The translations under genes and the position numbers were made by a program. Shown piece after piece: positions 3,851 through 51,809 of a stretch of DNA of 64,000 nucleotides. The stretch lies in the IMG/VR virus record IMGVR_UViG_3300033068_001655; one strand, given 5' to 3'. Position 1 is the stretch's first letter. Each line of letters starts with the position of its first letter. A model generated the notes under the pieces. That model was not told where the DNA came from and did no database searches. It worked only from the letters and a program-made list of their open reading frames with translations. This DNA is from a virus. Its lineage: Duplodnaviria > Heunggongvirae > Uroviricota > Caudoviricetes.

Positions 3851-3859
3851 ATATATTCG

Positions 3860-3932: not shown

Positions 3933-3941
3933 ATTTTTTTG

Positions 3942-5566: not shown

Positions 5567-5770
5567 ATGCCTGCTAAATCGAGACAGCAATTAAAATACA
5601 TATTTGCGATGCGTCGTAAATATAAAAATAAAAAAAGTGCTCCTAAACATATGAAGTGGGTATTTAACAAAGATTGGACCCACAATGTCAAAGCATCGGG
5701 GTTACCAACCAAAGTTAAAAATTTTCAAACCTATATATCCGAGAATTATGATGCTACTACTAAAAAGTAG
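5567..5770 (+). CDS. Small basic protein, DUF3008-like (MPAKS...KxxGLPxKV)
   Basis: MPAKSRQQLKYIF...KASGLPTKVK resembles the phage DUF3008 family from memory. Converges on and overlaps the tyrS 3' end by ~25 nt. Confidence 0.4.
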   Translation: MPAKSRQQLKYIFAMRRKYKNKKSAPKHMKWVFNKDWTHNVKASGLPTKVKNFQTYISENYDATTKK

Positions 5771-26548: not shown

Positions 26549-27637
26549 ATGACAAACGAAATTTTAAACCCAGAATTAGGAAACCCAGATTTCGAGCTTT
26601 TATTCGAGGAAAAAAGCTATAGAAAGGGTAAAAATATGAGTGATAAAGATCTTGATGCTCTTTATAGCTCTATTAAATTAGAAGTGCCACAAGTAGGTAA
26701 TGTGGTTAGATCTAAATACCAAGGTATTATGGCAAATCAGTTTGTATTTAGCGTTGACGGATTCAAAGATGATGTTAGAGTTGAAGACAAACCAGGTGAA
26801 GCTAAATACCTTAAAAATTGCAACACTGGAGATGAGGTTGATGTTTTAATTACCGAGATAAATCACGGTCAATATTTCATCAAAGGAAGTATAGCTTCTT
26901 TATATGAGTCAAGAGCTCACGAAAACCTTAAATCTCTAGAGGAAGGAGAATCAGTAACTGCCTACGTTAGAGCACTTAACCCAGCTGGTTATGATGTTGA
27001 GATTACAAATGGAGGAGTAACTCTTCCAGGATTTATGCCAAATACCTTAGCAGGTATCAACAAACTTTACGACCCAACTTCAATTGTTGGAGATACGTTC
27101 CAAGTTATGATTGAGTCTTTCTCAGAACATGAAGGAACTTATATCGTAAGTCGTAGAAAATACTTACAAACTTTAATTCCAGAAGAAATTAGTAATCTTG
27201 AGTTTAATGTGTTGTATAGTGGTAGAGTAACTGGAACAACACCATTTGGTATCTTTGTCGAGTTCAACGAGTGTTTAACTGGTATGATTCACAAAGCAAA
27301 TGTGACTGAAGAGTGGCAAAACAGAATCTCCGAAATTAAACCAGGACAAGAGATTGAGTTCTTTATTAAAGAAATCATTAAGGAGAAAATTATCCTTACT
27401 CAAGTTCTGAGAGAAACACTTTGGGACACCATCAAAAACGGTCAATTGATCGATGGTAAAGTAAAAGATGTTAAGCAATTTGGAGCTTTAGTTATCTTAG
27501 ATGATGAAACAGTTGGATTAGTCCACACATCAGAAATGGAGAAACTTGGTAGAAAGCTTACATCTGGACAGGACATCAAAGTAAAAGTTTTATCAGTTGA
27601 TAGACAAAGTCGTAAAATTTTTCTTACAATTGGATAA
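26549..27637 (+). CDS. Multi-S1-domain RNA-binding protein (ribosomal protein S1-like)
   Basis: Three S1 repeats recognised, including C-terminal GKVKDVKQFGALVILDDETVGLVHTSEM...GQDIKVKVLSVDRQSRKIFLT. Confidence 0.7.
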   Translation: MTNEILNPELGNPDFELLFEEKSYRKGKNMSDKDLDALYSSIKLEVPQVGNVVRSKYQGIMANQFVFSVDGFKDDVRVEDKPGEAKYLKNCNTGDEVDVLITEINHGQYFIKGSIASLYESRAHENLKSLEEGESVTAYVRALNPAGYDVEITNGGVTLPGFMPNTLAGINKLYDPTSIVGDTFQVMIESFSEHEGTYIVSRRKYLQTLIPEEISNLEFNVLYSGRVTGTTPFGIFVEFNECLTGMIHKANVTEEWQNRISEIKPGQEIEFFIKEIIKEKIILTQVLRETLWDTIKNGQLIDGKVKDVKQFGALVILDDETVGLVHTSEMEKLGRKLTSGQDIKVKVLSVDRQSRKIFLTIG

Positions 27638-31051: not shown

Positions 31052-32944
31052 TTATTTTTTAGAGTCTTTTTTATCTGTTGTAGTTTCAACTACTGCATCA
31101 GTATCTACTACATTTCCGGTTTTCATACCTTTACCCATCATTTCCATGATTTGCATTCCAAGTAATCCATCTAATGAACCGTTACCTTGTCCACTACCAT
31201 TGATTAGTAAATCTGGCATAATTTTCACTTTACCTTTACCAATCTCTTCTGTTACTTTGAATGTCGTAAAGTTGTCTTTACCCATTGCATCAACAGCCAA
31301 TCTATACGCTTCTGCAGTTGATTTACCCACTGATAAGATTGCATTCGCTTCTGCTTCACCAATAACGGTTTTTCTTGTAGCTTCTGCTTTAGCATTCAAT
31401 GTTGTAGCTTCTGCGTTAGCTTCTGCTGCAATTTTTACTGAACGAGCTTTACCAGTTGCGTCTTTAACCGCGGAGTCAGCTAATCTTTCAGAGATTTGAA
31501 CACCTTGGTCAGCTTTTACTAACTCACCTTGCATATCAGCAATAGCAGTTTCTTTTTCAAGAGTTTGACGTTGTACTTGAGCTTTTTTCTGAGTCTCAAA
31601 TGTTACTTGTTGCTCTTCTGCAATTTTACGGTCAGTTAATGTTTTCATCAATGACTCTGGTGGAGTAATATCTCCGATAAGTGTATCTACAGCGTGTACG
31701 TTATATTCGTCCAATACTTTAGAGATCTCTTTCTTAGCAGCATCTTGTCTTGATTGACGAGTAGATAAGAACGCGATAACGTCTGAATCTTGAGCAGAGT
31801 TACGGAAGTAGTTACCAATTGTTGGTTCTAATACTTGAGATACAAGTGCTTGTGTAGAACCGAAACGAGCAATTACTTTAGGTGCTTCATTCATTGGAAT
31901 GTGGATAATCTGTGATACATCCAAATTGAATGGGAAACCGTCTTTAGAACGTACTGTAATTGTACTTAAACCTTTATCTAAGTTGTGAGACTCTGTACGA
32001 GCATTTGCCCAGTTAAGTACAAGATTTGTTGTAGGTACAATCTCAATCTTAGTTGTATAAGGGTTGATTGCATATTTACCTGGACCCTTAGGTTCAGCCC
32101 AAACACCTTTTTGTCCTTTAGATACTAAGTTACCGTGTTTAAACCCAGCACCAGTTACGTCAACTCCTTCTTCACCAACATATGAAATAACAACACCACA
32201 ATTACCAATTGGAATATTAGTCATTTGTACTTCTTCAACTTGAACAGCCCAAGGGTTTAAGTTGTAAGAACCTGCTTGAATAACTTGACCTTGTAATCCA
32301 CGATTACCACCTGCTGCTAAGAAAGCATCAAAATCTTGGAAGTTATTGTGTCCTTCAACAGATTCTCCTGCAATTTGACCTGAACTAAGTGGTTCACCAT
32401 CTAATGTAGTAACAATACCCACCATATTTTCTTGAACGCTAACTTGTTTAACTGCAGATACTTCAAATAAGAATGTATTGATTTTATAGCTACCGTTAGT
32501 AATATAAGCGGCTTGACGACCTTTTTGACCACCATTTTGAAGGAAAGCTGTAGCATCTTGATAATTATCACATTCAACTTTACGTCCTAAGATACGTCCT
32601 GTTGGTGGAACTTTACCATCTTTAGAAGAAATTAAACCAATGTGTCCCTCAGGAATAACTATAAATCCTTGCATATCAACTGAATACTGCCATGGCCACA
32701 TAAACCAATGTAAACCAGTTTCTAACATTTTTGCTTGTAAACCTGCTTCACCATTTACTGCGATGATTCTATCACCACTTAATTGTTTGTTCTCACCAAA
32801 AAGAACGAATTTTTTCGTTACTAAACCAATCTTGTTCTCAGGAACAATAACTAGTCCAAAAAATACACGAAAAATGAACTTGTACATAAGAATACATACT
32901 AGTCCGAGAATTGCTGGCCAATAGGCCAAAATCTGTGTTACCAT
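31052..32944 (-). CDS. SPFH/band-7 (flotillin-like) membrane protein, 630 aa
   Basis: N-terminal TM helices, an SPFH core, and a long Ala/Glu/Gln-rich flotillin-type coiled coil (AEEQQVTFETQKKAQVQRQTLEKE...AEANAEATTLNAKAEATRK). GC ~40% against a ~27% background. Confidence 0.8.
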   Translation of the reverse strand: MVTQILAYWPAILGLVCILMYKFIFRVFFGLVIVPENKIGLVTKKFVLFGENKQLSGDRIIAVNGEAGLQAKMLETGLHWFMWPWQYSVDMQGFIVIPEGHIGLISSKDGKVPPTGRILGRKVECDNYQDATAFLQNGGQKGRQAAYITNGSYKINTFLFEVSAVKQVSVQENMVGIVTTLDGEPLSSGQIAGESVEGHNNFQDFDAFLAAGGNRGLQGQVIQAGSYNLNPWAVQVEEVQMTNIPIGNCGVVISYVGEEGVDVTGAGFKHGNLVSKGQKGVWAEPKGPGKYAINPYTTKIEIVPTTNLVLNWANARTESHNLDKGLSTITVRSKDGFPFNLDVSQIIHIPMNEAPKVIARFGSTQALVSQVLEPTIGNYFRNSAQDSDVIAFLSTRQSRQDAAKKEISKVLDEYNVHAVDTLIGDITPPESLMKTLTDRKIAEEQQVTFETQKKAQVQRQTLEKETAIADMQGELVKADQGVQISERLADSAVKDATGKARSVKIAAEANAEATTLNAKAEATRKTVIGEAEANAILSVGKSTAEAYRLAVDAMGKDNFTTFKVTEEIGKGKVKIMPDLLINGSGQGNGSLDGLLGMQIMEMMGKGMKTGNVVDTDAVVETTTDKKDSKK

Positions 32945-35322: not shown

Positions 35323-36432
35323 ATGATAATAAATTTAAAAAGTCAAACAGACCTTTCGGGGTTTTATGTAGTTTATGAAGGTTCAACAAACTTAGAAAAA
35401 CCAGGATGGTATGGAATATCACACTTAATGGAACATCTTGTTTGTAAATCATTTGATCACTTACAAGAAGATTTTGATAGAGATGGTATTGATTGGAATG
35501 CTTATACTTCTTCTAATGAAATCGTATTCTATTTAACTGGATTGGATGAAAAAGTAAACAAATATAAGAATCAATTTGTAGAATTACTAACTTCTTTTAA
35601 TGTAACTAAAGAAGAATTTGAAAATGAAAGAAAAATTGTTCTTGAAGAGTATATGGATTGTTTCAACGATCAGACTCAATCACACATGTTAAACCTTTCA
35701 AGAAAGTTATTCAATGATTATGATCCAATTGGGTTGAAAAAAGATTTAGAGAATTTGAAATTTATGGATTGTCTTAACTTTTTTGAATTACAATATGCTA
35801 AACCAACTAAAATTATCAATGTTTCTAAAAACAAGGATTATAAAAATAAATCAATTGAATTTCAAGAAAGAAAAATTGTAACTAATTTGAGTTTTGGTAA
35901 TCACGATGTTGATTTGGAATTAAATAATGATTTTAAAGATAAAACCTCTATTGTAATTTTATCTCCAGTGATTGAAGAAGATTTTGCTTACGTACACTTT
36001 ATAAATGCAATGTTATCATTAGGTTTAAAATCACCTTTATATCAAGAGATTAGAGAAAAGAAAGGATTAGTTTATTACGTTCATTGTTATCAATCAAGAG
36101 TAAATGATAAAGGATTGAATTCTATTTCGACTTTAACTTCAAATAGAAACTTTAATGAGGTTGTTGACGCTGTTAAAAAAGTGATTACAAACCCAGATAA
36201 GTTTTTAACTAAAGAAAGATTTAACATTGTTAAAGATTACTATGAGGTAAGAAAACAAAAAGACGAAATCAATAGATATGGTGCAGTAAATCAATGGATA
36301 AACCCTGCAGGTTGGTCTGTGTATGACATATTAGAAGAGGTTACTTTGAAAAAGATTAGAGAAGTTTATGATAAGTATTATGACTTTGATAAGTTTTATA
36401 TTTCATCAGACAAGAAAGAATTTAAAAAATAA
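35323..36432 (+). CDS. M16-family (insulinase/pitrilysin-like) zinc peptidase
   Basis: Inverted zinc motif HLMEH near the N-terminus (ISHLMEHLVCKS); 369 aa. Confidence 0.55.
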   Translation: MIINLKSQTDLSGFYVVYEGSTNLEKPGWYGISHLMEHLVCKSFDHLQEDFDRDGIDWNAYTSSNEIVFYLTGLDEKVNKYKNQFVELLTSFNVTKEEFENERKIVLEEYMDCFNDQTQSHMLNLSRKLFNDYDPIGLKKDLENLKFMDCLNFFELQYAKPTKIINVSKNKDYKNKSIEFQERKIVTNLSFGNHDVDLELNNDFKDKTSIVILSPVIEEDFAYVHFINAMLSLGLKSPLYQEIREKKGLVYYVHCYQSRVNDKGLNSISTLTSNRNFNEVVDAVKKVITNPDKFLTKERFNIVKDYYEVRKQKDEINRYGAVNQWINPAGWSVYDILEEVTLKKIREVYDKYYDFDKFYISSDKKEFKK

Positions 36433-37926: not shown

Positions 37927-38670
37927 TTATTTATTTAGTTGGTTAAAAATTGTTTGCATTCCGTTTGTAGCAACATCTTCAATGTGATGAAAATACGGTA
38001 ATTTATAATCTGGTATATCATACATCAACATATCTATTTTAGAAGGTTCGATGTAATATACAGGAGTTTTAAAATCTGTTAAAAATGGAATTTCATTTGC
38101 AGGAGATACTTGTAATGATGTACCAACAATTATACAGAAGTCACATTCTTCTGCAGCTTTTACTGCAGTATTTACATCAGAACTATCTAATTCTTCACCA
38201 AACCATACAATGTGTGGTCGTAGTTGAGAACCAGTTTTCTGACATTTATCACCTATTTTTATTTCTCCGTATCCTATATCAATAATTGTATCTAATGGAC
38301 TTGTTTTATGTGTGTACATACAACCTCTTGCTTTAGTTAGTTCACCGTGTAAGTGAATAACATTGGTAGAACCTGCTCTTTCATGTAGGTCGTCAACATT
38401 CTGAGTAACTACTGTTACATCAAAATTTTCTTCTAGTTTGGCAATTAGTTCGTGTGCTAAGTTTGGCACAACATCTTTTAACTGTGCTCTTCTTTGATTA
38501 TAAAAATCTAAAACTAACTCTCGGTCTTTTCGCCATGCACCTGGTGTGGCGACATCTTCAATCCTATGGTTATTCCATAAGCTCTCGGTAGAATCTCTAA
38601 ATGTTTCGATTCCACTTTCTTTTGAAACTCCTGCTCCAGTAAATACTAATATTTTTTTTCTTTCATTCAT
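37927..38670 (-). CDS. Sir2-family NAD-dependent protein deacylase (CobB-like)
   Basis: FTGAGVSKESGIETFRD, QNVDDLHERAG, Cys zinc ribbon. Confidence 0.8.
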   Translation of the reverse strand: MNERKKILVFTGAGVSKESGIETFRDSTESLWNNHRIEDVATPGAWRKDRELVLDFYNQRRAQLKDVVPNLAHELIAKLEENFDVTVVTQNVDDLHERAGSTNVIHLHGELTKARGCMYTHKTSPLDTIIDIGYGEIKIGDKCQKTGSQLRPHIVWFGEELDSSDVNTAVKAAEECDFCIIVGTSLQVSPANEIPFLTDFKTPVYYIEPSKIDMLMYDIPDYKLPYFHHIEDVATNGMQTIFNQLNK

Positions 38671-38750: not shown

Positions 38751-41700
38751 ATGAGTTCAACAAATTTAGTGAAAAAAAATTTATTTACAAAACCATACCT
38801 ATTAACTTTAGATGAGATAAGTCAGATTGGACAGAATATGAATTTAGTAGGATATGATCCTCAATTAAATATAACTAGTGATGATACTAATATTGTATTA
38901 AAATATGGTGTTCCAAGTAGTCCAAAGATTTTAAATTGGGTTGAACCTTATAAGATTAGTGGTATTGACTATACTTTATTTTATACAGAGGTAAATTCAG
39001 GGTTAAGTATTGGTGATAGAGTTTTTATTATCAATGGTACTTATGATAGTAATTTATTGATACAAGCAGATAAATATAAAAAAGGTCATGATGGTTATAA
39101 AGTTCTTTTTATTGATAAGTGTAAAGTAGTTTTAGACATAGAATTTACTGGTTCCTTACCAAGTAATGAAACAACTGAAAATAATGATGACTTTGATGAC
39201 TTTATAAAAGTTTATTATTTAAAAGATGCAAATGATTTCTTACACGTAAATAGACAAATTACTACACGTGTTAGTGGTAATACAGTTGATTTTAAATTTA
39301 ACAACTATCAAAATAATATAGTATTTACAGATAGTAATTTTGGTCCAGTAAATGATACTTGGGGATTAAATTCTGGATTATCAGGTGCACCAGGTTTTTT
39401 TATTAAAGATGGAACTGCTGGTTGGATCGATATAAGTTCTGATTTTATGATCGGTTCTTATTCGATTGCAGCAACTAATTCAAATAATAAGATACTTATA
39501 CTAAATAATGGATTTACATATAATGGTGTTGATTTTAAAGAAAATTCAGTTTATGCGTGGGAATATGATCCTATAAAAGCAACATTTAGCTGGGTAGTTA
39601 ATGTTAAACATGAAAACAATAATGTTCCTATTCTTACTAAGTCTAATTTTAGAGACGGTACCTTTAATGGTACTTTTAATGGTGGCTTATATGGTTCAAA
39701 TGAGAAAAGAATTACGTGGGGTTCAACCACCTCTTTCTGGAATCACGGAACTTTATTAAATACTATCTGGGAAAAGGGTATAATGGAGTCAAGATATAGT
39801 CAAGTTGAAAGTTATATTGCGGAGTTTGACTCATATGGTATGCCTTATCAAAAGTCAACAAATCCTGATAATGATGGATATGGATATAATTTTGTTATAA
39901 ATTCTGAAATACGTAATGCTGTTATCAATAATGCAAATGTTAGTAATTCTACATTAGGTACATCATCAAATTTCTCAATTATTGAAGAGCATGTAAGAGG
40001 TAATTTAACAGATCAATTTATTCAAGATAATTTTAACACTACTCTTATCAATAAAGCTTATTTTGAAAGTTGTGGTATTAGTAATACTAATATAGAAAAT
40101 GCAATAATAAAAAACTCAAGAGTTAGTAACTCAAGATTATATAGTGTTAAGTCGATCAATACACATTATAAGTCATCTTTATTTAAAAACTCAAACTATA
40201 TAAGTGATAATATAATTAAAGTATTAGATTTTGATGAATTTGAATATACAACTGGTAATAGTACAACACATTTAGTTTATAAATTCTATATAAATAAAAG
40301 AAGTTATGAAAAGTTTAAATTTAAAGATAACTTCTACATTAAGGGTATTAAATTAAATACAACCAATATAGTATTTTCTGATACTGAACCGGTTGGAAAT
40401 ACTATATTAAACTTCTTTGATAAGAAATTTAAGTTAGGACCTTGGACGGAATATGTTGATAATTATGATGATAGCAGTAATACTTTTTATAAACGACCTA
40501 TAAGATTCAATTCCTTTGTATCAACCCCTAAAGAAAATCAATATGAATTTGATAGTAATGGTAATACTAATGTAACAGGTCAAGTTACTAATACTAAGGG
40601 TTATTCATTAGATATTTTTGTTGAATTGGATAGTACTAATATACCTAATTTAACAGACCAAACCATCAGTTATAAAGATATTATAGACTTTTCTAATGCT
40701 TATATTCAAAACTCAGATTTTGAAAGTGGTATTGTTGAAAATTCAAACTGGAATAGTGGTCATCACATCAATTATAGTTATTCCAATAACTTAGTTGGTA
40801 CTTCAAGTCAAAATGGTATCTATGATATAAGTTTAACACAGTCTTCACTGATTTTAAACTCAATTATATCAAATGAGGAAGTTGAGTCAGATTATTACAA
40901 AAATGGTGATATTATTTTCCTAAATGCGGTTGATTATGATTCCAGAGGTACGGTTGATGGAATTTCGATAAGTGTACCGGGTTCTGGATATGTTACATCT
41001 AACAATATATCAACTAACTATGGTGGCACTGGTTTTGGTTTACAAATTAGTATTAGTGCAAGTGTAGTAGGTGGTGTGTCATCACTAACTCATAATGGGG
41101 ATGGGGATGGATTTACTAATGATGGTATTTATAGTGTAACTGGTGGTTCTGGAACTGGTCTGACATTAAATATAACACACGATATTAGTGGTCTTATCGA
41201 TACTTACTCAATTAATAATCCAGGATCTGGATATTTAGTAAATGATATAATCAGTATTGTTGATGCAGGTTTTCCTGCTACATTTAATATAAATAGTATA
41301 ACAAATGGTGAAGTAATAAGTGCATCAGTGAGTACAAGTGGATTATTCTATGAGGTTGGTGATATTATCAATATAGGTACAGGTAATGCTAAAATTGTAA
41401 TTACTAGTGTAACTGGTTCTTTAACAAGATTACCAGATACTTATAGGATTTCGGATTTAAACACATTTACAATTGATGAAGTAGTGGCAACTGGATCAAC
41501 TAGTGTCTTAATAGATCTTTTACCAGTTGGTGTATTTAGTTCTTATGGTGCTAATAATAGATATGGATATTTACATAAAACAAAGTTCTACAAATCAAAA
41601 ATATTATCTGGATTATTCAGAAGAGCTTATTTAAAAGGTTCCTTAATTAAAAATGATACAATTGATATTAGTGATAAAGATTTTACTAATATTGCAAAAC

Positions 41701-44162
41701 TTAAAAATTTAATAATCGCAGATACAATATTTTCTAAAAATGATAATATTTTATCTAATGCTTTTTATATATTCTCATCATTTGTTGGGGGTACTGATAT
41801 ATGGGATAATGGTATTTTATTTAGATCTATTTGGAACGGAATGATATTTAATAATGGTTTAGTAAGAGAATCTACTTGGTTAGATGGTACTTTCGTAAAT
41901 GGTCTATTCTATCTTTCTACAAAACCACCTTTATATAATATATTAGGTACTGGTTTAAATTTAACAATTGATTTACCATATTACAATTCAAATAATATAT
42001 TATCATATTATAGAAGCGGTGATACTACAATTGGTAACAATGATAGATTATCTTGGCAAAATGGTACATTTATCAATGGTGAATTTTATCAAAGTAGATG
42101 GGAATCTGGAGATTTCAATGGTGGTAAATTTTACTATTCTGATTTCTATGATGGTGTAATTAATGGTGGTATAATTGGTGATAAAACACTTTCAACAACA
42201 GATACTATAGTTTATAATGGTACTATCAATTATACAACTGTTGAAAATGCACTTTTTGAAGCTAATTATACTGATTATAATAAATCCGTACAAACTAATA
42301 TAAATTGGTATGATGGTGTATTTAATGGAGGTAAGTTTAGTACTTTTGATAATAATACGGCAACTTGGTACGGTGGTGTATTTAACGGTGGTGAATTCGG
42401 AGATTTGAATATACTAAATAGTTTTGGTAAACCAAAATGGAAAAATGGTACATTTAATGGAGGTAAATTTACATCAATATATGGTGTTGCTTCGAGTACA
42501 TATTCAACTACATCAATATTAAATGATATTAGTAACTATGCTTGGGAAGATGGTGTATTCAACGGCGGTGAGTTTGGATTTGGTGATTTTATAAGTTCTA
42601 GTTCATGGGCTAACAACTCAAGTTGGTTTAATGGAACATTTAATGGAGGTAAGTTTAAAGGAAAAGTTTGGAATAATGGAATATTTACGTTCGGTGAATT
42701 TTCTGGTAGTGGAGTTTCGGCAATTGGAGGAACTGCTTCAGATATTACAAATTCAAATCCAAATAATTTTGTAAAATCATTTATTGATAATGGTAATCAA
42801 TATTATGGATTATGGAGAAATGGATTTGTAACAGATACTAAGAGTAAATACTTAGATGAGGAAATTTTTACAGAATTAAAAAGAAATGACTTTAGTAAAA
42901 ATCAACAATTTGCATTATTGAAAAATATTCTTTGGTTAAATGGTACATTTAGTCATCCTAGTGCAACTATTCAAAATTCAGTTTGGTTAGATGGAGAATT
43001 TGGAAATGGTAGATTTGAAACTAGTTCTTTTAATCCATATGCAATAAGAGCAACTGGTTCCAGTGCGACATTTAACTTTAGTGATACTTGTAAATGGAGT
43101 AATGGTATTTTTGATTCAGGTGAATTTTCTATATCAAATTGGGAGAATGGTAGATTTATTATGGGTACTTCAACTGGTATGATTTGGAAAAATGGTATCG
43201 TAAATTATATGAATGCTTATAATGTATTCTGGGAAGATGGACTATGGAGAAATGGAAACTGGCAAGGTTCTTTCTATAATATAAATTCAGATGGAACTGT
43301 TACGGATCCTTATGTTCAACAAGTTTTAGATAGAGGTATGTCTTGGAGTGGAACTTCTTCTTGTCACATTTGGAGTTTGTTTTATAAAGAAAGTTTAACA
43401 GAATTTAGTGTACCACCAGTAAATGAAATGGCAACAACTGTTACTCAACAATTAGATTCAAGTGAGCCACTACCACCACTACCACCTACTCAATTTGGAT
43501 TGGTAAATTCTAGTACAAGTCCTGTACTGCCTAATCCATCTAATAAACAGTTAGGTTCAATTACTTGGACTGTTGATGGTGGTTCTACTAGTAAAGTAGG
43601 TACGGATTCAACCATTAGTGTTACTTTCACGGGAATTGATCAATTCAATCAAGTTAAGTGGGGAGTGGGTGGCCAAGATATAATTTTAATCAGTGGAATA
43701 TCTGATATAAGAACATTTACTCTACAACCTGGTGAAAATTATTTTGTAGTTAAGGCGACAAACCCGGATAATAATCAGGTTACTTATACTAATACTTTAA
43801 TTTATACTAAAATAGTACCATCATATGTTATAAATGATCCAATTAATCAAACAATAACACCTACTTTTAACAATAAAACAGGAACAATTGTTGTAAATAC
43901 AGCACCTGTGACATTAACACTTACTGCAAACGCGGCCGGTTCAAGTAGTACATTTGGTCTTTGTACAACAAAAGGTATTGCAACAATAAGTCTTTTTGGT
44001 AATCCTATTAACGGAAGTCCATTTAATACATCACTTGCATTAAATACTGGTACATCAGTAAGAACCACAACTATAACATTGACATCAGCAGGTACTTATA
44101 ATGTTACTTTATCAGGTACATTTAATGGATCTTCAGGTCTTGGAACTGTTACACTAACATAA
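38751..44162 (+). CDS. Giant (1803 aa) fibre/adhesin-like protein with W-x-N-G-x-F-x-G-G-x-F solenoid repeats and C-terminal Ig/FN3-like region
   Basis: Dozens of ~20-aa repeats (WYDGVFNGGKF, WKNGTFNGGKF, WEDGVFNGGEFG...). Pro-rich linker (PLPPLPPTQ) precedes Ig-like C-terminal domains. TTATATATAGTT motif upstream. Confidence 0.6.
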   Translation: MSSTNLVKKNLFTKPYLLTLDEISQIGQNMNLVGYDPQLNITSDDTNIVLKYGVPSSPKILNWVEPYKISGIDYTLFYTEVNSGLSIGDRVFIINGTYDSNLLIQADKYKKGHDGYKVLFIDKCKVVLDIEFTGSLPSNETTENNDDFDDFIKVYYLKDANDFLHVNRQITTRVSGNTVDFKFNNYQNNIVFTDSNFGPVNDTWGLNSGLSGAPGFFIKDGTAGWIDISSDFMIGSYSIAATNSNNKILILNNGFTYNGVDFKENSVYAWEYDPIKATFSWVVNVKHENNNVPILTKSNFRDGTFNGTFNGGLYGSNEKRITWGSTTSFWNHGTLLNTIWEKGIMESRYSQVESYIAEFDSYGMPYQKSTNPDNDGYGYNFVINSEIRNAVINNANVSNSTLGTSSNFSIIEEHVRGNLTDQFIQDNFNTTLINKAYFESCGISNTNIENAIIKNSRVSNSRLYSVKSINTHYKSSLFKNSNYISDNIIKVLDFDEFEYTTGNSTTHLVYKFYINKRSYEKFKFKDNFYIKGIKLNTTNIVFSDTEPVGNTILNFFDKKFKLGPWTEYVDNYDDSSNTFYKRPIRFNSFVSTPKENQYEFDSNGNTNVTGQVTNTKGYSLDIFVELDSTNIPNLTDQTISYKDIIDFSNAYIQNSDFESGIVENSNWNSGHHINYSYSNNLVGTSSQNGIYDISLTQSSLILNSIISNEEVESDYYKNGDIIFLNAVDYDSRGTVDGISISVPGSGYVTSNNISTNYGGTGFGLQISISASVVGGVSSLTHNGDGDGFTNDGIYSVTGGSGTGLTLNITHDISGLIDTYSINNPGSGYLVNDIISIVDAGFPATFNINSITNGEVISASVSTSGLFYEVGDIINIGTGNAKIVITSVTGSLTRLPDTYRISDLNTFTIDEVVATGSTSVLIDLLPVGVFSSYGANNRYGYLHKTKFYKSKILSGLFRRAYLKGSLIKNDTIDISDKDFTNIAKLKNLIIADTIFSKNDNILSNAFYIFSSFVGGTDIWDNGILFRSIWNGMIFNNGLVRESTWLDGTFVNGLFYLSTKPPLYNILGTGLNLTIDLPYYNSNNILSYYRSGDTTIGNNDRLSWQNGTFINGEFYQSRWESGDFNGGKFYYSDFYDGVINGGIIGDKTLSTTDTIVYNGTINYTTVENALFEANYTDYNKSVQTNINWYDGVFNGGKFSTFDNNTATWYGGVFNGGEFGDLNILNSFGKPKWKNGTFNGGKFTSIYGVASSTYSTTSILNDISNYAWEDGVFNGGEFGFGDFISSSSWANNSSWFNGTFNGGKFKGKVWNNGIFTFGEFSGSGVSAIGGTASDITNSNPNNFVKSFIDNGNQYYGLWRNGFVTDTKSKYLDEEIFTELKRNDFSKNQQFALLKNILWLNGTFSHPSATIQNSVWLDGEFGNGRFETSSFNPYAIRATGSSATFNFSDTCKWSNGIFDSGEFSISNWENGRFIMGTSTGMIWKNGIVNYMNAYNVFWEDGLWRNGNWQGSFYNINSDGTVTDPYVQQVLDRGMSWSGTSSCHIWSLFYKESLTEFSVPPVNEMATTVTQQLDSSEPLPPLPPTQFGLVNSSTSPVLPNPSNKQLGSITWTVDGGSTSKVGTDSTISVTFTGIDQFNQVKWGVGGQDIILISGISDIRTFTLQPGENYFVVKATNPDNNQVTYTNTLIYTKIVPSYVINDPINQTITPTFNNKTGTIVVNTAPVTLTLTANAAGSSSTFGLCTTKGIATISLFGNPINGSPFNTSLALNTGTSVRTTTITLTSAGTYNVTLSGTFNGSSGLGTVTLT

Positions 44163-44177: not shown

Positions 44178-45842
44178 ATGGGTAAGAAAGCAACAATACA
44201 ATTTACAAGTATACCACAATCATCGGACTTTTTTGGAATAACTATGTCAGGTGCTAGTGCATCATTTGAACTAAGTGAGATTCCTTGGGATGGTAGTGTT
44301 CTTCAACCAGGTGCAACTAAAGAATATTCTGCAACTAGTCTATATAACTATATAAACTCAGTTTTACCTATTGGTACTGATATTACTACAACAATAAATA
44401 GTAATACGATTAACTTATTTAGTGAGAGTGCAACAAGTGTTAAGTTTTTTTCTGACCCTGCAATACTTATTACTAGTGGTATTTTGGATGGTTATTCAAA
44501 TGTGTCTTCACAATCCTGGTCTGCAAATTATAATGTTGGAAGTAATATCTTAAACTTAACCTGGAGTGGAGCATCAGATCCAGAAGAATCTATCAGAGGG
44601 TATCACCTATCATATAAAAAAGGAAATAGTAATTCTTGGATTTCTTTAGGTTTAATTGAGACAAGTGATGGTGGTGCAAGTTATGATTTTACTATACAAC
44701 AACAAGTAACTCATGTTTTTAGAGTAATCACAGTAGATACAACAAATTTAACTAGTGAACCTGCTTATTTTACTTATTCTATAACTCCAATATATCAAAT
44801 AACATCAACTTCTAATTTACAATCTCAGTCAGCTTGTTCATTAGGGATTCCAAATAATGTTATTTATTTAACAACTACAATACCTACCATAAATGAATAT
44901 GTTTATACTGATGCTGCGTGTACTATTGGTTTTAATGGTACTAGAACAACAATATTGGGTAGTCCTGGGCCACAACCTAGAAACTGGAAAATTGGAACTC
45001 CAACAAATGTATATTATAGTTGTACTATAAATTCTGTTGGTATGATCACTACTAATCCTATTTTATGTGAAGGTGGGCCTAACAGTGGACTCATATCTAA
45101 TAATGCATCCACTGAAACGGGTGCTTGTAATTATTTAGTTAATGTAAATAATACTATATATTGGACTGGTACTTTGGCAGTGGGTACTATTCTATACCGA
45201 ACTAATACAAATGGTACTTTAACTAACACTGTTGTATTAGGTTATTATCATATTCTATCAACAGATTCAAATGGTTTAGAATTAGAGTATATTATTAAAG
45301 TAAGTAGTACGGGTGTAATACTTACTATGAAGTTATATTCACAATTTTGTAATATTAGTGGTGGTGGTAGCACTGGCGGTGGCGGTGGTGGTTGTGTTGA
45401 TCCTTTTGTATCAATATTATTACCAAATGGTGTTACTAAATTTGCAGGGGAATTAAAATCAAATGATATTATTCTAACTATACATGAAAAAACTAAAGAA
45501 TTAGGTGAGTTTAAAATACTTAATGCAGAAAAAATTATTCAAGAAAAAGTAATTGTTAAATTTACTGATGATACTGAAATTAAAGTTTCTGACACACACA
45601 AGTTTTTAATGAGTGATGATACTTGGAAACAAATATTTATGTTAAAAGGTAATGAAACTATTAAAGGTCTTGAAGTGGATAAAACTATAAAAGAAATTAT
45701 AAAAATCGGTACTGGTGAAGTAGTTGTACTTGAAGTAGAAGATGCACATACTTATATTAGTGATGGTTTAATATCACATAATGTTAAATTGGCAATCTTC
45801 GAAGACAATTCATTTTCAAATTTTGATGGATTATTTCCATAA
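44178..45842 (+). CDS. FN3-containing protein with C-terminal Hint (Hedgehog/intein-like) autoprocessing domain
   Basis: FN3-like segment (GYHLSYKKGNSNSW...VFRVITVD), then poly-Gly GGGSTGGGGGG|CVDPF (Hint block A Cys), SDTHKFL (block B), EVVVLEVEDAHTYISDGLISHN (terminal HN), then a 19-aa tail. Confidence 0.7.
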   Translation: MGKKATIQFTSIPQSSDFFGITMSGASASFELSEIPWDGSVLQPGATKEYSATSLYNYINSVLPIGTDITTTINSNTINLFSESATSVKFFSDPAILITSGILDGYSNVSSQSWSANYNVGSNILNLTWSGASDPEESIRGYHLSYKKGNSNSWISLGLIETSDGGASYDFTIQQQVTHVFRVITVDTTNLTSEPAYFTYSITPIYQITSTSNLQSQSACSLGIPNNVIYLTTTIPTINEYVYTDAACTIGFNGTRTTILGSPGPQPRNWKIGTPTNVYYSCTINSVGMITTNPILCEGGPNSGLISNNASTETGACNYLVNVNNTIYWTGTLAVGTILYRTNTNGTLTNTVVLGYYHILSTDSNGLELEYIIKVSSTGVILTMKLYSQFCNISGGGSTGGGGGGCVDPFVSILLPNGVTKFAGELKSNDIILTIHEKTKELGEFKILNAEKIIQEKVIVKFTDDTEIKVSDTHKFLMSDDTWKQIFMLKGNETIKGLEVDKTIKEIIKIGTGEVVVLEVEDAHTYISDGLISHNVKLAIFEDNSFSNFDGLFP

Positions 45843-45870: not shown

Positions 45871-48800
45871 ATGCCATTTATAGATACAAACATAGCACCA
45901 TCTTGGACATATGATGCCAATTTAGGAGGAATTAAAAGAATAGTTCTTAATGATACAAATATTAAATTTATTAAGAATACTGTCAATTCTACTTATAATT
46001 TTACTCAATTAAAAAACTATCAATTTGTTACAGGTATTACAGGTTCTGTTGCATTAGGAACGTTCTCTGTTAGATTTAGACCACCATTTACTACAAATAC
46101 TATTAATTTAAGAAGTAGTGTTTTAACTAATGGGGGAGTAGAATTCTATACATACAATAGTCCTAATAATACTCTAGCATCCAATACACTATTATCATAT
46201 GGCTCTGATAATTCTTTTACACAGTCAGTTATAAAATCTACTAAAGTAAATGAACTTAGTTTTCTTATAAATGGATTTAGAGAGTTTAGTTATTTAGATA
46301 GAGATATTGCAACATCATCTCAACCTAGTGGTTGGTTTTATGGTATTGCACCTGGTGATTTTGATCCTTCCTATAATTTCTTTTTATCTTCATCTACGAG
46401 TTCTATATCACCATCTTACTCTACATTGGGTTCAGGTTTAAACACAGTATCAAATAAGAACTTTATAGCAAAATATATTGAATATGATACATTTAACTTA
46501 GAATATAGTTTTTACACATCAACACCAGTGAATATGAGTATGTATTTACTGACTTTAGATAATTTAGGTACACCAGCAAATTGGGCATCACATATAGTAG
46601 CAACATTTTCAACAACTGGGACTTATAGTAATTTAGGATTAGTGGGTACTAACTATGATGGTACTAAAAATTATTTAGTTTTCTCTTGTGAAGCAGTTTT
46701 TAACACAGGTGTAAATTATACTTTAAATAGTAATGGTGATTCAGTACTAACTGATATTTACTCAAAATTATCTAATATAGAAATCTATGGTACTTATCAT
46801 CCAACTTCTAATAATAGATTGTCATTGACTGATACTACTACAAGTCCAATAGGTCTAAGTATTTCTAATGCTGCTTATTCATATACTTTATTAAACAATG
46901 GTGGAACATTCTCAATTCCATCTAGAATTGGTAACGGCGCATTTAGATCGGGTATATGGGAAAATGGAGTTTGGAATAATGGATGGAGAGATGATACCAA
47001 TACAAAGGATTTTGACGATGTTTATATTTCAGTTTTAACTGCATCTGATGTTTCTTGGAAAATAGAGATTAGAGGGGCAACCACTGCAATTGATGGATTT
47101 GCGACTGGTTCAAATGTTTCAATAGGAAATATCGTTGCAATTGATATAAATGATAATAGAAAACTTTTAAAAGATTATTATCAAATCGAATCACTTGGAG
47201 TTGATGCAGGTGATCCACAAAATGGTGTTGCACCGTATGGTTGGATTAGAGTTAATTTAGATACTTCATTTCCTTATAGAAGAATTGAAAAAGATTCACC
47301 TAATCATAAAATCAAAGTAACTAAGAATATTTGGTTATCAGGTGGTTTCTTTAATGGATATTTCTCTGGTGTTTGGAATAATGGTTTGTTTAAAGGCTAT
47401 CCATTATTGACAGAGATGTTTGATTCACATTGGATTGATGGATTATTTGATGGTGGACATTTTAATTCTACCTATTCTAATAACTATGATTTTATAGGAA
47501 TTGGTCCTAAAGTTGCTTGTAGTAATAATTTTATGGACTTAATTTTTGCATCATCATCCACAACACCTTTTTTACAAGGAGATTATATATTCCTTACCTT
47601 ATATGATATTGGTGAAGTATTTTTAACAGGTTCAGATCTTTATTCAGGGGTATGTCAAATTGTTGATGTTAAAGTAGATACGGAACCTTTAATGTCTGAT
47701 AATAACGGAGGGTTTATTCCAAATCCAAACTTTATGTATCAAACAATAACTATTAATAAAAGATCAATTGGTTTACCAAAATATTTTGATACTAATGCAC
47801 CCGCTGGTTATGCATATAGATATACTGCAACTTCTGTTATTCAAAATTTTAAATTTTATGATAATAATAGATCTAAAATAAAGTCATCTGATAGTCAATT
47901 ATCCAATGCAGTATTTAGTTTTAACTCTTGGATAGATGTAAATTATGATGATACAAGATCAGTAACATTAGGAAGAGATTTTAGAGTATATGAACCACTG
48001 ACAAAAAAGTCTGTTAGTAGAAATAATTTATTTGGTTATCCTACTTATGATATTTTATCAAGTGCTTCTCGTTTCAGAGATAGTAACTCACTAGATACTA
48101 AATTATATAAATTGGGGACAAAATATAAGGTGTTTAATGATTTTATTGGAGATTACTCAAAATTCAATGAACCATTTAGTGATTTAGACTTTGGTAGTTT
48201 TATCAGTGCAGGATGGACATATTCGTATGCAAACACATCTGACTTTAAAATTAAAAGAACTGAAAGTTTAATAACATTAAATGATAGTCAATCAACTGCA
48301 CTTTTAAACTCTGGTGTTACTGGTGACGAATTATATATCACTGCAAGTAATACTGGAATTATTTTAAATAATAGTAATGTAAATATAGAGAAATCTAGAT
48401 ATTCAGTAGTAGAGTTTGATGTAGTAACATATAGTGTTCCCAATACAATTTATACTTATGATAATCCAGATATTTATCAAAAAAGAAGTATTAGTAATGT
48501 AGGACTTTCTTTTAGTGAAACAACTAATACTGTAGATGCTTACATAACAAGTAGTTATAACTTAGTTGGTTCTCCAACATTCTCAGTAGGTGACATTGTA
48601 GTAATGGTTGATATATATGGTGATGTACCAGGAACTACAATTAATTTAAAGGCACCTAATGGTAAAATTGTGAATCTTAAAAAAGTAGGTACTGGTTTAG
48701 GTAGTAGAATGAATCAAACTAGATTTAGTTTTAGAGATATTTATGATAGATTTTCTTATATTACTACTCCATATAGTTTAAATAACACAACAATAGCATA

Positions 48801-51096
48801 TTCTGATACTTATCAAATGGATAAAGAAATCGGACAGGGAAATATAGCACCATTTTTATCTAATACTACTTTATTATCAGACTTAGTTTATACTAATGGA
48901 GTTCCTACTATTTATGGTACATGGACTTTATTTATAAAGTATAATCCACTTGCAGTAAATGTTTGTGATTTAGTTAATTGGTCTATTGATATACAATATA
49001 AACACTTAATTATTGAGGATAATGAACCAACTGTGTCATTCCCTATATTGAATTTTAACAATCTTAATTATGATATAACAACTCAATTGTCATGGTATGA
49101 TGATGTACAAATTTATAAAAGAATGAACTATCTACCTATACAAAATAATGTTAATCATTTATTGACACAAAATACATTTAGATTAGACTCTGTTGAATTA
49201 GCAACTCCTGCTAGATGGGGTGGCTTTGGTAAAAATCAAAAAACTAAAAAGTATGAGTATTTCTATAATAAAACTGATATGATGTTAAGTATCAATGGAA
49301 ATGGTGCAACTGGTGGTAGTACATCAATGGTTATATTAGATAATCTTAATATGTATGAGGTTGATATGATTCCATTCTTTAAATACTTTGATACACCTAA
49401 TATTTATAAAGGTGTTGTATTTCCTTATATTGGAATATCACCTGAAATAGATTACACAAATTCAGACTTTGTATTTATTGACAATATTACAATTGGTTTA
49501 GATAGTATTAACCCAGTGGCAGTTGATACTACATTTATTGATTGTGGGACTGCATCATCTGCAACTCTACAACTTAGTGCAAGTATAAATGGATTAGTCA
49601 CACCACCACTTTCTTGGACTACATCATCATACCAGTTTGTAAATATGTCAAATAGTAATACACCTGGTTCAGTAACTTGTTCTACAACATTTGATTCGAT
49701 CAGTTGGACTATTACCCCGTTATTATCTGGATTACCTCCAGTTACAATTTCTAATGCAAATAGTTTATATCCATCAGTATTAGGGTTGACTGCAAGTGGT
49801 GAATATAGTGTAGAGATTACAAGTCTAATTAAAAATGGACCACCATCTCAAGCAATTGGTTTACTTAATAATGGTGTATCAATTAAAGCAACTATTAAAG
49901 TGAATCCTAAACCGACTACAATAATTAATATTCAACCATTGGCACTACAATTTGATTTTGTACCTGGTGATGCAGTATCTCATATTATAGATGAGACTAA
50001 CTTATTGAATAATTACTCAAATAGTAATAATAATAATCCAAGTGCATTTGTTATAGAAAGTTTACCAATTGGAAGTTTATTTTATAATGGTGTGTCAATC
50101 ACATCAGTTCCTTTTGGACCTATCGCAATTGTAAGTGGTTCTATACCTGGTTTATTGTATTACCCAGAGGGTAATCCGCCATTAGTTCCACAAGCAGCTT
50201 CTTTTAGTACATCATTCGACTATACAATTATTGATAATGAGAATAATCCTTATACTACAACAATGCTAATTGTTGCTACAATACTACCTTCTACTATAAT
50301 AGTAGATACACCATTATCTAAATCGATAAATTATAGTTTTAATGAAAGTAATTTACAAGCAACAAAATACTTTAATGAGGTTGATTTAGTTCAAAATTAC
50401 ATTAATACTCCTAATGGTACACCTGCGAATCATATTAAAATTTATAGTGTACCATCAACAGGTGAGTTATCATATAATGGTACCCTAGTGTCTGTAAATG
50501 ATGTAATACCTTATATTGATCTAATTAGTGGTGCTCACTTTGCTTATCATCCACAAGGAATAAACCGTTTAGATACTACAGGTGGTAATTTTAATACAAC
50601 ATTCACATATACTGTATTAGATCCTCAGTCTAATGAAAGTAACTTAGTTACTTTTACTTTAAACTGTACTCAAATTTTAGTAATAAATGGATTTACATTA
50701 GGTCCATATGGTACTATGTATAATCCAGGAGGATTATCAGGAGGTAATACAAGTCATGACTTACTTTTAGGATATCCTTCAAATACGGCAATACTAAAAT
50801 GGAAGGCAACATATACATTAGTTGCTGAAACATATACAGATGCAAGAGTTGCATTTTCTACAAATGATTCTACACCTGCAGTGGTAACGTTGTGGTATGA
50901 TTTTAATGAGGTTAATGGACAAACACCAGGTATTCATTATACAGCTTGGAGAACACTAATACCTTCTTCTGCGGTATATGGTAATCCTATTTCTTGTTTA
51001 TTAAGAAGTAACAATGGACATACTATAACAATTACTGTACAAGCATTAGATTCAAGTAATAATATCCTAGGAACTTATACATTTACATCACCATAA
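45871..51096 (+). CDS. Giant (1741 aa) fibre/adhesin-like protein sharing the W-x-N-G repeats
   Basis: IWENGVWNNGW, WLSGGFFNGYFSGVWNNGLFKG, WIDGLFDGGHF repeats; TAATATATAGTTT directly upstream of the ATG. Confidence 0.6.
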   Translation: MPFIDTNIAPSWTYDANLGGIKRIVLNDTNIKFIKNTVNSTYNFTQLKNYQFVTGITGSVALGTFSVRFRPPFTTNTINLRSSVLTNGGVEFYTYNSPNNTLASNTLLSYGSDNSFTQSVIKSTKVNELSFLINGFREFSYLDRDIATSSQPSGWFYGIAPGDFDPSYNFFLSSSTSSISPSYSTLGSGLNTVSNKNFIAKYIEYDTFNLEYSFYTSTPVNMSMYLLTLDNLGTPANWASHIVATFSTTGTYSNLGLVGTNYDGTKNYLVFSCEAVFNTGVNYTLNSNGDSVLTDIYSKLSNIEIYGTYHPTSNNRLSLTDTTTSPIGLSISNAAYSYTLLNNGGTFSIPSRIGNGAFRSGIWENGVWNNGWRDDTNTKDFDDVYISVLTASDVSWKIEIRGATTAIDGFATGSNVSIGNIVAIDINDNRKLLKDYYQIESLGVDAGDPQNGVAPYGWIRVNLDTSFPYRRIEKDSPNHKIKVTKNIWLSGGFFNGYFSGVWNNGLFKGYPLLTEMFDSHWIDGLFDGGHFNSTYSNNYDFIGIGPKVACSNNFMDLIFASSSTTPFLQGDYIFLTLYDIGEVFLTGSDLYSGVCQIVDVKVDTEPLMSDNNGGFIPNPNFMYQTITINKRSIGLPKYFDTNAPAGYAYRYTATSVIQNFKFYDNNRSKIKSSDSQLSNAVFSFNSWIDVNYDDTRSVTLGRDFRVYEPLTKKSVSRNNLFGYPTYDILSSASRFRDSNSLDTKLYKLGTKYKVFNDFIGDYSKFNEPFSDLDFGSFISAGWTYSYANTSDFKIKRTESLITLNDSQSTALLNSGVTGDELYITASNTGIILNNSNVNIEKSRYSVVEFDVVTYSVPNTIYTYDNPDIYQKRSISNVGLSFSETTNTVDAYITSSYNLVGSPTFSVGDIVVMVDIYGDVPGTTINLKAPNGKIVNLKKVGTGLGSRMNQTRFSFRDIYDRFSYITTPYSLNNTTIAYSDTYQMDKEIGQGNIAPFLSNTTLLSDLVYTNGVPTIYGTWTLFIKYNPLAVNVCDLVNWSIDIQYKHLIIEDNEPTVSFPILNFNNLNYDITTQLSWYDDVQIYKRMNYLPIQNNVNHLLTQNTFRLDSVELATPARWGGFGKNQKTKKYEYFYNKTDMMLSINGNGATGGSTSMVILDNLNMYEVDMIPFFKYFDTPNIYKGVVFPYIGISPEIDYTNSDFVFIDNITIGLDSINPVAVDTTFIDCGTASSATLQLSASINGLVTPPLSWTTSSYQFVNMSNSNTPGSVTCSTTFDSISWTITPLLSGLPPVTISNANSLYPSVLGLTASGEYSVEITSLIKNGPPSQAIGLLNNGVSIKATIKVNPKPTTIINIQPLALQFDFVPGDAVSHIIDETNLLNNYSNSNNNNPSAFVIESLPIGSLFYNGVSITSVPFGPIAIVSGSIPGLLYYPEGNPPLVPQAASFSTSFDYTIIDNENNPYTTTMLIVATILPSTIIVDTPLSKSINYSFNESNLQATKYFNEVDLVQNYINTPNGTPANHIKIYSVPSTGELSYNGTLVSVNDVIPYIDLISGAHFAYHPQGINRLDTTGGNFNTTFTYTVLDPQSNESNLVTFTLNCTQILVINGFTLGPYGTMYNPGGLSGGNTSHDLLLGYPSNTAILKWKATYTLVAETYTDARVAFSTNDSTPAVVTLWYDFNEVNGQTPGIHYTAWRTLIPSSAVYGNPISCLLRSNNGHTITITVQALDSSNNILGTYTFTSP

Positions 51097-51809
51097 TCTC
51101 TAATTAGAAGTAGATATCCAACTTTACCTGGCTCTGTTTTAGAACAGTGACCCATTGCATCAATCTTGGTTTCATCACCAGTTAGTTTGATCTTAGTAAG
51201 TTTTTGTTTCCCTAAAATACGTCTTTCTCCTTTACAAGTTGTACAAGGGTTTAAGCCTACTTTTCCTTTACCAAAACAGAATGGACAATCTTGATCTCTA
51301 TATTTTCCAGTACCTTCACATAAATCACATCCATCTTCTGAATCAAATATCTTTAATATGTTACCATCATTATCTTTAATTAAGATTTTAGAAGAAAGAT
51401 CTTTTCCAGTACCATCACAAGGTTTACAACGAACCCATCTTTCATACTCTACTGTTCCATCAAAAGTATCATCTACCTTTAGATAGATATTATAGATTTC
51501 GTTTTTCTTAAATTGTTCATATTTATCTTTAGTATCATCATGTGAATAATCAAAGTTTGTTTCAAAAAGTTCATAGTATTCGTTATAACAATTACCAAAT
51601 TTACTTTTTTTATCATAATCTTCTCTTTCTTCTCCACAAAGGACATCATATGCTTCTGTCATTTCACCAAAAATAACTGCATCAGACTCTTTATTATTTT
51701 TATCAGGATGTAGTATCTTGGCATTGTTATAGTATGCTTTTTTAATTTCTTTTAATGTTGAATCTTTTGAAATTCCAAGTATTAGGTAATAATTTTTATT
51801 TAGGTTCAT
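51075..51809 (-). CDS. DnaJ-like co-chaperone (J domain + CxxCxGxG zinc finger)
   Basis: YYLILGISKDSTLKEIKKAY...LHPDKN (HPD motif); CKPCDGTGK, CDLCEGTGK, CPFCFGKGK, CTTCKGE repeats. Confidence 0.7.
   Translation of the reverse strand: MNLNKNYYLILGISKDSTLKEIKKAYYNNAKILHPDKNNKESDAVIFGEMTEAYDVLCGEEREDYDKKSKFGNCYNEYYELFETNFDYSHDDTKDKYEQFKKNEIYNIYLKVDDTFDGTVEYERWVRCKPCDGTGKDLSSKILIKDNDGNILKIFDSEDGCDLCEGTGKYRDQDCPFCFGKGKVGLNPCTTCKGERRILGKQKLTKIKLTGDETKIDAMGHCSKTEPGKVGYLLLIRDYGDVNV

Follow-up and report, generated by a model that had tools for sequence, protein, structure and literature searches.

The locus examined here raises the question of what an intein-like domain does at the end of a phage protein, where there is no residue suited to splicing and very little to splice to. 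It lies in what we call the window, meaning the whole 64,000-nt stretch of DNA that was analyzed, which comes from a tailed virus (Caudoviricetes; IMG/VR record IMGVR_UViG_3300033068_001655). An open reading frame (ORF) on the plus strand at 44178 to 45842, with its stop codon at 45840 to 45842, encodes a precursor of 554 amino acids (aa) and 59.9 kDa, and residue numbers below are those of this protein. An initial annotation, made from the sequence alone, described a complete mini Hint (Hedgehog/intein-like) domain at the C-terminus, preceded by a region containing an FN3 domain and by the linker GGGSTGGGGGG, and the translation contains every sequence feature that it listed. We conclude that the C-terminal 130 aa of the protein are a genuine mini Hint domain of the HINT superfamily. 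Furthermore, the module belongs to a large, apparently undescribed and phage-specific family whose members are Hint modules at the termini of tail proteins.

Matches of structure and profile, together with the pattern of selection (omega), support a module of 130 aa and 14.6 kDa at residues 406 to 535 (45393 to 45782; this and all other parts of the ORF are on the plus strand). It opens with CVDPF, whose first residue, Cys406 (codon at 45393 to 45395), is the predicted nucleophile and Hint residue 1, and is invariant in our alignments A2, A4, and A5. The [S/T]xxH motif of block B is found as S471-D-T-H474 (45588 to 45599) and aligns with intein block B; its His is invariant, and its Ser nearly so, in alignments A2, A3, and A4. 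Blocks F and G, DAHTYISDGLISHN, occupy residues 522 to 535 (45741 to 45782) and finish with a penultimate His534 and a terminal Asn535 that align with the terminal HN of mini-inteins. Only a 19-aa tail of 2.16 kDa follows (VKLAIFEDNSFSNFDGLFP; 45783 to 45839). As had been proposed, this tail offers no +1 nucleophile, with Val536 at +1 and Lys537 at +2, and it is little conserved among orthologs except for a Lys at one of these two positions.

The initial annotation expected profile searches to return a Hint or intein match. With the single 554-aa sequence, such matches remain below threshold: Pfam Intein_splicing reaches 17 bits against a cut-off of 35.8, and the best match in a phmmer search of the PDB is the Spl DnaX mini-intein (E = 0.055). 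Likewise, NCBIfam, which has no model for these proteins, and PHROGs give no above-threshold Hint match to the single sequence. With profile A4, a broader family alignment in which the window module forms the first row, all 35 matches in the PDB are inteins or bacterial-intein-like (BIL) domains, led by gp41-1 at 2.8e-10. The C. thermocellum BIL domain matches at 3.5e-7, which is no better than the mini-inteins, and BUBL BIL2 from Tetrahymena matches at 7.7e-7. The alignments to inteins run from end to end, placing Cys406 at intein residue 1 and His534-Asn535 at the terminal HN.

Fold comparison leads to the same assignment. An AlphaFold2 (AF2) model of residues 400 to 538, built from 14 orthologous modules (pLDDT 72), was compared with the PDB by Foldseek, and each of the top 50 matches is an intein, a BIL domain, or Hedgehog, with TM scores of about 0.55 to 0.58. 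The best of these are the NpuDnaB and Ssp DnaB mini-inteins (2e-7), and gp41-1 is also matched. Tetrahymena BUBL BIL2 follows at 7e-7, the BIL domain of C. thermocellum at 7e-6, and the autoprocessing domain of Hedgehog at 9e-5. In addition, 43 of 84 family representatives match Pfam Intein_splicing and 32 match PT-HINT (best 7e-11), linking the family with the Hint clan.

The size of this family became apparent from an exhaustive hidden Markov model search with the module profile over 1.84 billion cluster representatives, which matched 806 proteins at E ≤ 1e-3, 283 at E ≤ 1e-10, and 54 at E ≤ 1e-30. Signature positions were counted in the best 150 of the 806 matched proteins, which hold 147 complete modules (146 for the tail and Lys counts). 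Cys, as part of C-[PV]-x-P, comes first in all 147 complete modules, S-H-N comes last in 146 of them, and Gly predominates at positions -1 to -5. In 84 modules the residue at +1 is Lys, and 134 of 146 have a Lys at +1 or +2, versus a background Lys frequency of 4.7%; Ser or Thr stands at +1 in 5 of the 147, and Cys in none. The family signature is polyGly/C-[PV]-x-P...S-H-N/(x)K, where slashes mark the module borders. After the His-Asn pair, the tail measures at most 30 aa in 60 modules and exceeds 100 aa in 48. Other domains found on the 84 representatives are diverse and include Peptidase_S74 (two representatives), S8, and NlpC/P60. All ten representatives that were looked up are metagenomic proteins.

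Some family members carry two or three Hint modules in tandem (P0038, P0039, P0041, P0043, P0044, P0048, P0054, P0091, and P0131, and likewise proteins of loci L043, L063, and L080). The linkers between their modules are short and either basic or Gly-rich, as in HN/LVGKGGG/C and HN/KRRRPQ..., and double cleavage of such proteins would free short peptides.

Among the closest known systems are Hint domains of the BIL kind, especially the A-type (Amitai et al. 2003; Dassa et al. 2004). They lack the +1 nucleophile and occur in variable regions of nonconserved proteins (PMC7664689, PMC7765530), which have even been called hypervariable (PMC7765530). The products of domains without this nucleophile are for the most part N- or C-cleaved (PMC7664689), and A-type domains retain the C-terminal His-Asn (PMC7664689, PMC7765530). 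The window protein shows the sequence characteristics among these. Its +1 residue is Val, and orthologs carry V, L, K, or I there, with Thr in one; its Hint module is inserted at a variable Gly linker rather than at a conserved active site; and the C-terminal His-Asn, an A-type feature, is present. From its residues, therefore, the module appears to be of the BIL type, and neither a splicing intein nor a Hedgehog-type domain.

Comparison with BIL domains such as that of C. thermocellum (PDB 2lwy) brings out both the kinship and the distinct character of the phage modules. The two share the Hint fold, Cys1, the block B His, the C-terminal His-Asn, the absence of Cys, Ser, or Thr at +1, and a variable host region, such that N- and C-cleavage rather than splicing would be expected. 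However, the known BIL domains belong to cellular secreted proteins, whereas the modules described here are phage-borne and very often terminal, with a tail of only 4 to 30 aa, and have a signature of their own, polyGly/C-[PV]-x-P ... DAHTY..G..SHN/(x)K.

The initial annotation had invoked Hedgehog and bacterial intein-like domains side by side, and only the latter comparison holds. The Hedgehog Hog domain (PDB 1at0; E of about 9e-5) is likewise a C-terminal Hint domain in which thioester cleavage at a Gly/Cys junction frees the N-terminal cargo. However, Hog has no terminal His-Asn, whereas the window module keeps it, and mini-inteins and BIL domains are much closer matches. We rejected Hedgehog-like sterol transfer on these grounds, and also because the 19 residues after the window module are unconserved and include no sterol-recognition region.

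Given these characteristics, we consider it probable that the module is an active BIL-type Hint domain and that the precursor processes itself, releasing both cargo and tail. The lack of a +1 nucleophile and the shortness of the tail make self-cleavage at Gly405/Cys406 through a thioester the natural prediction, which is also what the initial annotation had drawn from this architecture, and Cys406 is intact. Judging from the conserved residues, this cleavage is the likeliest function of the module. After translation, Cys406 would attack the carbonyl of Gly405 in an N-S acyl shift to form a thioester. The thioester would then be resolved, most simply by hydrolysis, with water as the presumed nucleophile in the scheme that we favor. 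The product would be a mature 43.2-kDa cargo, composed of the N-terminal domain, the FN3 domain, and a Cys-rich domain, and ending in a flexible poly-Gly stretch. Separately, cyclization of Asn535, helped by His534, would detach the 2.2-kDa, 19-aa tail from the 14.6-kDa Hint domain.

In this way the module would remove itself, akin to the self-cleaving C-terminal chaperone domains (Peptidase_S74) of tail spikes. The resemblance is one of function only, in that a self-cleaving C-terminal module of a tail protein is discarded after maturation. The two are not homologous and have unrelated folds, and Peptidase_S74 is a Ser-Lys dyad protease, whereas the window module would rely on a Cys thioester and on Asn cyclization.

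The evolution of the module is consistent with an active domain. Database searches returned 37 relatives of the 554-aa protein, all of them metagenomic and on contigs of up to 635 kb, and these include P0001, which is identical to the window protein and located on a 175,757-bp metagenomic contig. Among the 31 Hint-bearing orthologs, the residue at -1 is Gly in every case, and mean column identity is 87% across the Hint module (alignment A2) versus 59% for the whole protein (A1). A codon alignment of six loci (the window, L001, L006, and L008 to L010) gives a nonsynonymous divergence (dN) of 0.03 to 0.20 and a synonymous divergence (dS) of 0.27 to 0.65 for the module, with an omega mostly of 0.1 to 0.3, compared to 0.27 to 0.68 for the cargo. 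Because real synonymous divergence is accompanied by low dN, the module is evolving under purifying selection and is not decaying, and this selection is stronger than that acting on the cargo. For some pairs of loci, the module has a smaller dS than the cargo (0.27 to 0.32 versus 0.89 to 0.93 for L001 or L006 against L008), which may reflect module recombination, gene conversion, or exchange between phage lineages.

Four orthologs occupy the syntenic slot and lack a Hint domain, and three of the four terminate with ...GG[W/F]G-stop inside the linker. Because these proteins stop within the linker, the cargo can evidently exist alone, with its C-terminus at about the point of predicted cleavage. 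None of the four has a homolog of the 19-aa tail or a fusion of cargo and tail. Conversely, distant cargo homologs (P0066, P0040, and P0063; 31 to 37% identity) end in the same polyGly plus Hint arrangement within the same synteny, indicating that the pairing of cargo and module is old.

A different C-terminal cassette of ~115 aa (GGPKIICNLLYSQGF...IYKLIISKRKK) stands in P0033 and P0035 where the Hint domain would be. Pfam has no family for it, and its only other matches are two small stand-alone ORFs (of 114 and 90 aa), so that it probably originates from a small gene downstream that is sometimes fused in frame. The spacer behind one Hint-less ortholog (L002:4179-4338) keeps both ends of this cassette, namely NGGPKIICNLLY and then, in a different frame, IYKLIISKRKK followed by a stop. 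This spacer looks as if the interior of the cassette had been deleted.

Several points weigh against self-processing by a Hint domain that releases a structural cargo. The profile matches of the lone 554-aa sequence all fall below threshold, the last 15 or so residues of the AF2 model (block G) are of low confidence, and the Asp of intein block F (F:4) seems not to be conserved in a manual alignment. A structural role for the cargo is supported by association only. Moreover, if release of the N-terminal part were all that mattered, as in Hedgehog, the His-Asn pair and the Lys at +1/+2 would be needless. The invariance of His-Asn and the conservation of this Lys imply that a C-terminal reaction matters as well, and that more than simple hydrolysis may be involved.

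This last consideration bears on a ligase-like alternative, in which the Gly405 thioester would be captured by an amine instead of water, as in BUBL or in trans-aminolysis by BIL domains. Candidates for this amine are the epsilon-amine of the Lys at +1/+2, the alpha-amine of the tail once Asn535 has cyclized, and a Lys of a partner such as a giant neighboring protein. The product would be a peptide or isopeptide bond, giving either a 45.3-kDa cargo-tail species or a cross-link between cargo and partner. BUBL BIL2 of Tetrahymena, which is reported to join the epsilon-amine of a lysine to a C-terminus in an isopeptide without ATP (PMC8616854), is among the closest solved structures (PDB 6tmm and 6y75). 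It too is a BIL-type Hint domain located behind a cargo with a Gly-rich C-terminus, and where it resolves its thioester with lysine, the phage family has a conserved Lys just past the His-Asn. BIL domains can ligate through a freed alpha-amine as well, and in the phage family the His-Asn is invariant and the Lys near-universal even where the tail measures only 4 to 14 aa. The transfer onto a fiber protein or a glycan that the initial annotation envisaged is speculative, although BUBL offers a precedent for a form of it directed at lysine.

Nonetheless, we regard such a ligation as unlikely for the window protein, although it is the strongest of the alternatives. BUBL is eukaryotic and has a ubiquitin-like cargo, whereas the window protein is phage-borne and has a 19-aa tail with no downstream acceptor domain. 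Its cargo, which consists of an unassigned domain, an FN3 domain, and a Cys-rich beta domain, is not ubiquitin-like, and only its poly-Gly end loosely resembles the Gly-Gly end of ubiquitin-like proteins. The tail is otherwise unconserved, with no evident purpose in keeping it attached, and the Lys may merely aid folding or Asn cyclization. A minor reservation concerns the Lys counts, in that profile A2 included three flanking columns that slightly favor matches with Lys at +2. By analogy with BUBL, the phage family at large might act as an ATP-independent ligase in virion assembly, with poly-Gly thioesters captured by Lys to place isopeptide links in tails, but we hold this broader possibility to be slightly more doubtful still.

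A separate observation concerns ubiquitin as well. Six family members of ~325 to 400 aa (at loci L044, L064, L099, L122, L126, and L129) have a cargo domain that matches Pfam E1_FCCH, the FCCH domain of ubiquitin-activating enzyme E1. The best match has an E value of 1.3e-8, three exceed the gathering score, and the domain lies upstream of the polyGly-Hint junction and not within the Hint domain. Its presence in Hint-bearing phage cargos is curious given the analogy to BUBL and ubiquitin.

It is improbable that the module is a catalytically dead Hint fold serving as a structural or adaptor domain, or as a handle for recombination at the 3′ ends of variable genes. The pairs with lower dS in the module than in the cargo (0.27 versus 0.89 for L001 against L008) would be compatible with exchange of the module between lineages, as would the reported location of BIL domains in hypervariable regions (PMC7765530). 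However, what stays invariant across hundreds of clusters is precisely the catalytic set of Cys1, the block B His, and His-Asn, and omega is low.

It is far less probable that the module is a canonical mobile mini-intein that lies toward the 3′ end of the gene and splices the cargo to the tail through a +1 nucleophile. The nearest solved structures are indeed phage or cyanobacterial mini-inteins (gp41-1 and DnaB), and both Cys1 and the terminal His-Asn are in place. We nevertheless rejected a class 1 intein, because the +1 residue is Val, the module lacks a homing endonuclease and is followed by a short, unconserved C-extein, the insertion site is a variable linker, and the Hint-less alleles show no fused exteins, three of four stopping in the linker. 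Least credible of all is a pre-toxin HINT domain (PF07591) from a polymorphic toxin that frees a C-terminal effector. It is true that 32 of the 84 relatives resemble this autoproteolytic releasing module of modular, variable proteins, and that more than 100 aa lie behind 48 of 146 modules. PF07591 does not match the window protein, however, and only 19 unconserved residues come after its module, with no toxin domain and no immunity-like gene. Its released product would be the N-terminal cargo, and the C-terminal modules of the family are mostly carried by tail proteins.

Self-processing of a tail component, as we favor it, is also in keeping with where the family is found. A hand-made degenerate DNA pattern for D-A-H-T-Y-[IV]-x-x-G-h-h-S-H-N, which covers this motif variant only, produced 14 matches in 185,579 bacterial and archaeal species genomes (one each, 596 Gb), compared with a chance expectation of about 0.02. 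The cellular matches are mostly from Sphingomonas and relatives, in ORFs that resemble prophage tail proteins; family members of this kind include the Sphingomonas or Stakelama tail-fiber proteins of loci L013 and L018. The same pattern occurs in at least 120 IMG/VR viral contigs. For the one motif variant compared, then, the module is common in viral contigs and rare in cellular genomes, and the family is almost entirely phage-borne.

The proteins that carry the module were sampled as 30 nonredundant proteins from the pattern loci among the matches listed, each with a C-terminal module and a tail of at most 32 aa. Ten match phrog_5616 (tail fiber protein), eight match phrog_31 (central tail fiber J), seven match phrog_376 (tail protein), and others match additional tail PHROGs; in Pfam, Phage-tail_3 and Rcc01698_C are matched as well. 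To judge from these matches, C-terminal modules sit mostly on tail-fiber, J-like, or other phage tail proteins.

In contrast to metagenomic contigs, phages in culture appear to lack the module. A tblastn search with the full protein against 50,697 GenBank phage records gave no match. A module search of the same collection, whose members are mostly cultured isolates, matched one uncultured gut phage and no cultured phage carrying the module; what else it matched were ordinary inteins of TerL or RecA-like genes, with identities of about 29%. A locus search with alignment A1 returned no viral loci and two metagenome loci. Hint chemistry is known from inteins, Hedgehog proteins, BIL domains, and pre-toxin HINTs. 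As the initial annotation had surmised for fiber assembly, we found no paper in the full-text literature that reports Hint-mediated maturation of phage tail or structural proteins or describes a terminal Hint/BIL module on them; the papers that were found deal with inteins of the ordinary kind, in proteins such as TerL, RNR, and helicase. The near absence of the family from cultured phages probably explains why it has gone unnoticed.

What the window module would release is less easily classified. The cargo of ~394 aa comprises three domains, of which the first (residues 1 to 109; 44178 to 44504) is an alpha/beta domain modeled with pLDDT values of 73 to 92 and has no Pfam, PHROG, or NCBIfam match. 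The second (about residues 110 to 205; 44505 to 44792) contains NLTWSGASDPE and is an FN3-like beta-sandwich, in agreement with the initial annotation, although Pfam fn3 matches the single sequence with an E value of only 0.03. The third (residues 206 to 394; 44793 to 45359) is beta-rich, with pLDDT values of about 80 to 95, and has five Cys residues (220, 282, 297, 317, and 391) that are invariant in alignment A1. The Gly-rich linker (residues 395 to 405; 45360 to 45392) then leads to Gly405, the -1 residue of the predicted cleavage site. Comparison of the full-length model with the BFVD gave only weak matches, driven by the FN3 fold, including such matches to tail proteins.

The ORF lies between two co-directional giant ORFs on the plus strand, with gaps of 15 and 28 nt. 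The upstream one (38751 to 44162) encodes 1803 aa and the downstream one (45871 to 51096) encodes 1741 aa, and both are syntenic partners of the Hint-bearing gene. The order giant-1, Hint protein, giant-2, DnaJ, SbcC is kept in every homologous locus retrieved (L001 on a 635-kb contig, L002, L008 to L010, L146, and L147 on a 378-kb contig). In the related locus of LR745206.1 (292778 to 315457), the giant homologs (1591 aa and 987 aa) directly adjoin each other without a Hint-bearing gene in between, and this gene is therefore an accessory member of the cassette. The giant-2 homolog of that locus ends in a Gly-rich stretch, ...PPSGGGGNSGEGLFIL.

The initial annotation spoke of a structural module flanked by giant fiber proteins, and here it went beyond what the locus supports. 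The giant ORFs have no match in the PDB and no similarity to any Hint-bearing host protein, and show only a weak pentapeptide-repeat match in Pfam and one PHROG of unknown function. The genes around the cassette, which include Sir2, DnaJ, SbcC, CoaE, and an M16 peptidase, seem to form a host-like, accessory context that is not structural. The occurrence of the same module family on tail proteins of other phages offers indirect support for a structural role in the window as well, as do the weak, FN3-driven fold matches to tail proteins. The cargo may be a virion or tail component that works together with its two giant neighbors.

The window as a whole has a GC content of about 28%, and accessory genes of a host-like character surround the cassette. 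Among them are genes for an S1 RNA-binding protein (26549 to 27637, plus strand), an SPFH/Band 7 protein (31052 to 32944, minus strand), an M16 peptidase (35323 to 36432, plus strand), Sir2 (37927 to 38670, minus strand), and DnaJ (51075 to 51809, minus strand). The window also encodes an NAD-dependent ligase, an SbcC-like protein, and CoaE. An array of 13 tRNA genes (Ser, Arg, Phe x3, His x2, Lys x3, Trp x2) lies on the minus strand at 1181 to 4014, and includes an ARAGORN call with a four-base anticodon (gaag) at 2969 to 3044. The array adjoins a gene for a bacterial-type tyrosyl-tRNA synthetase (5746 to 6999). Two ORFs on the minus strand resemble homing endonucleases, one of 278 aa with HNH and helix-turn-helix domains (277 to 1113) and one of 284 aa with a LAGLIDADG_3 domain (9598 to 10452); both are free-standing and not associated with the Hint module.

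A 1068-aa ORF on the plus strand (18102 to 21308) belongs to phrog_29329, whose function is unknown, and is related to gp264 of Sphingomonas phage PAU. Regions of the uncultured huge phages LR745206 (634,780 bp) and LR756502 (642,428 bp) match it at 74% and 68% identity, respectively, and Lak phages and phage PAU have more distant relatives of it. These relationships indicate that the window is a fragment of a huge phage. A homolog of this ORF on another IMG/VR contig (L056:1517-5674, minus strand; 1386 aa; 29% identity over about 800 aa), which is one of the 30 sampled carriers of a C-terminal module, terminates in polyGly and a Hint module of the same family, which suggests that the family of the 1068-aa ORF is also tail-associated or structural.

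If the predicted cleavage occurs, these modules would constitute a second, chemically distinct class of self-removing C-terminal domains on tail proteins, beside Peptidase_S74. This would also affect how the lengths and receptor-binding tips of tail proteins are annotated in metagenomic phages. Because the module is compact (130 aa), has a permissive poly-Gly N-junction, and does not require a nucleophile at +1, it could serve to generate C-terminal thioesters or to remove tags. Should the conserved Lys prove to be a nucleophile, the family would represent a protein-ligation system that occurs in nature, and chemistry like that of BUBL might be at work in building phage particles.

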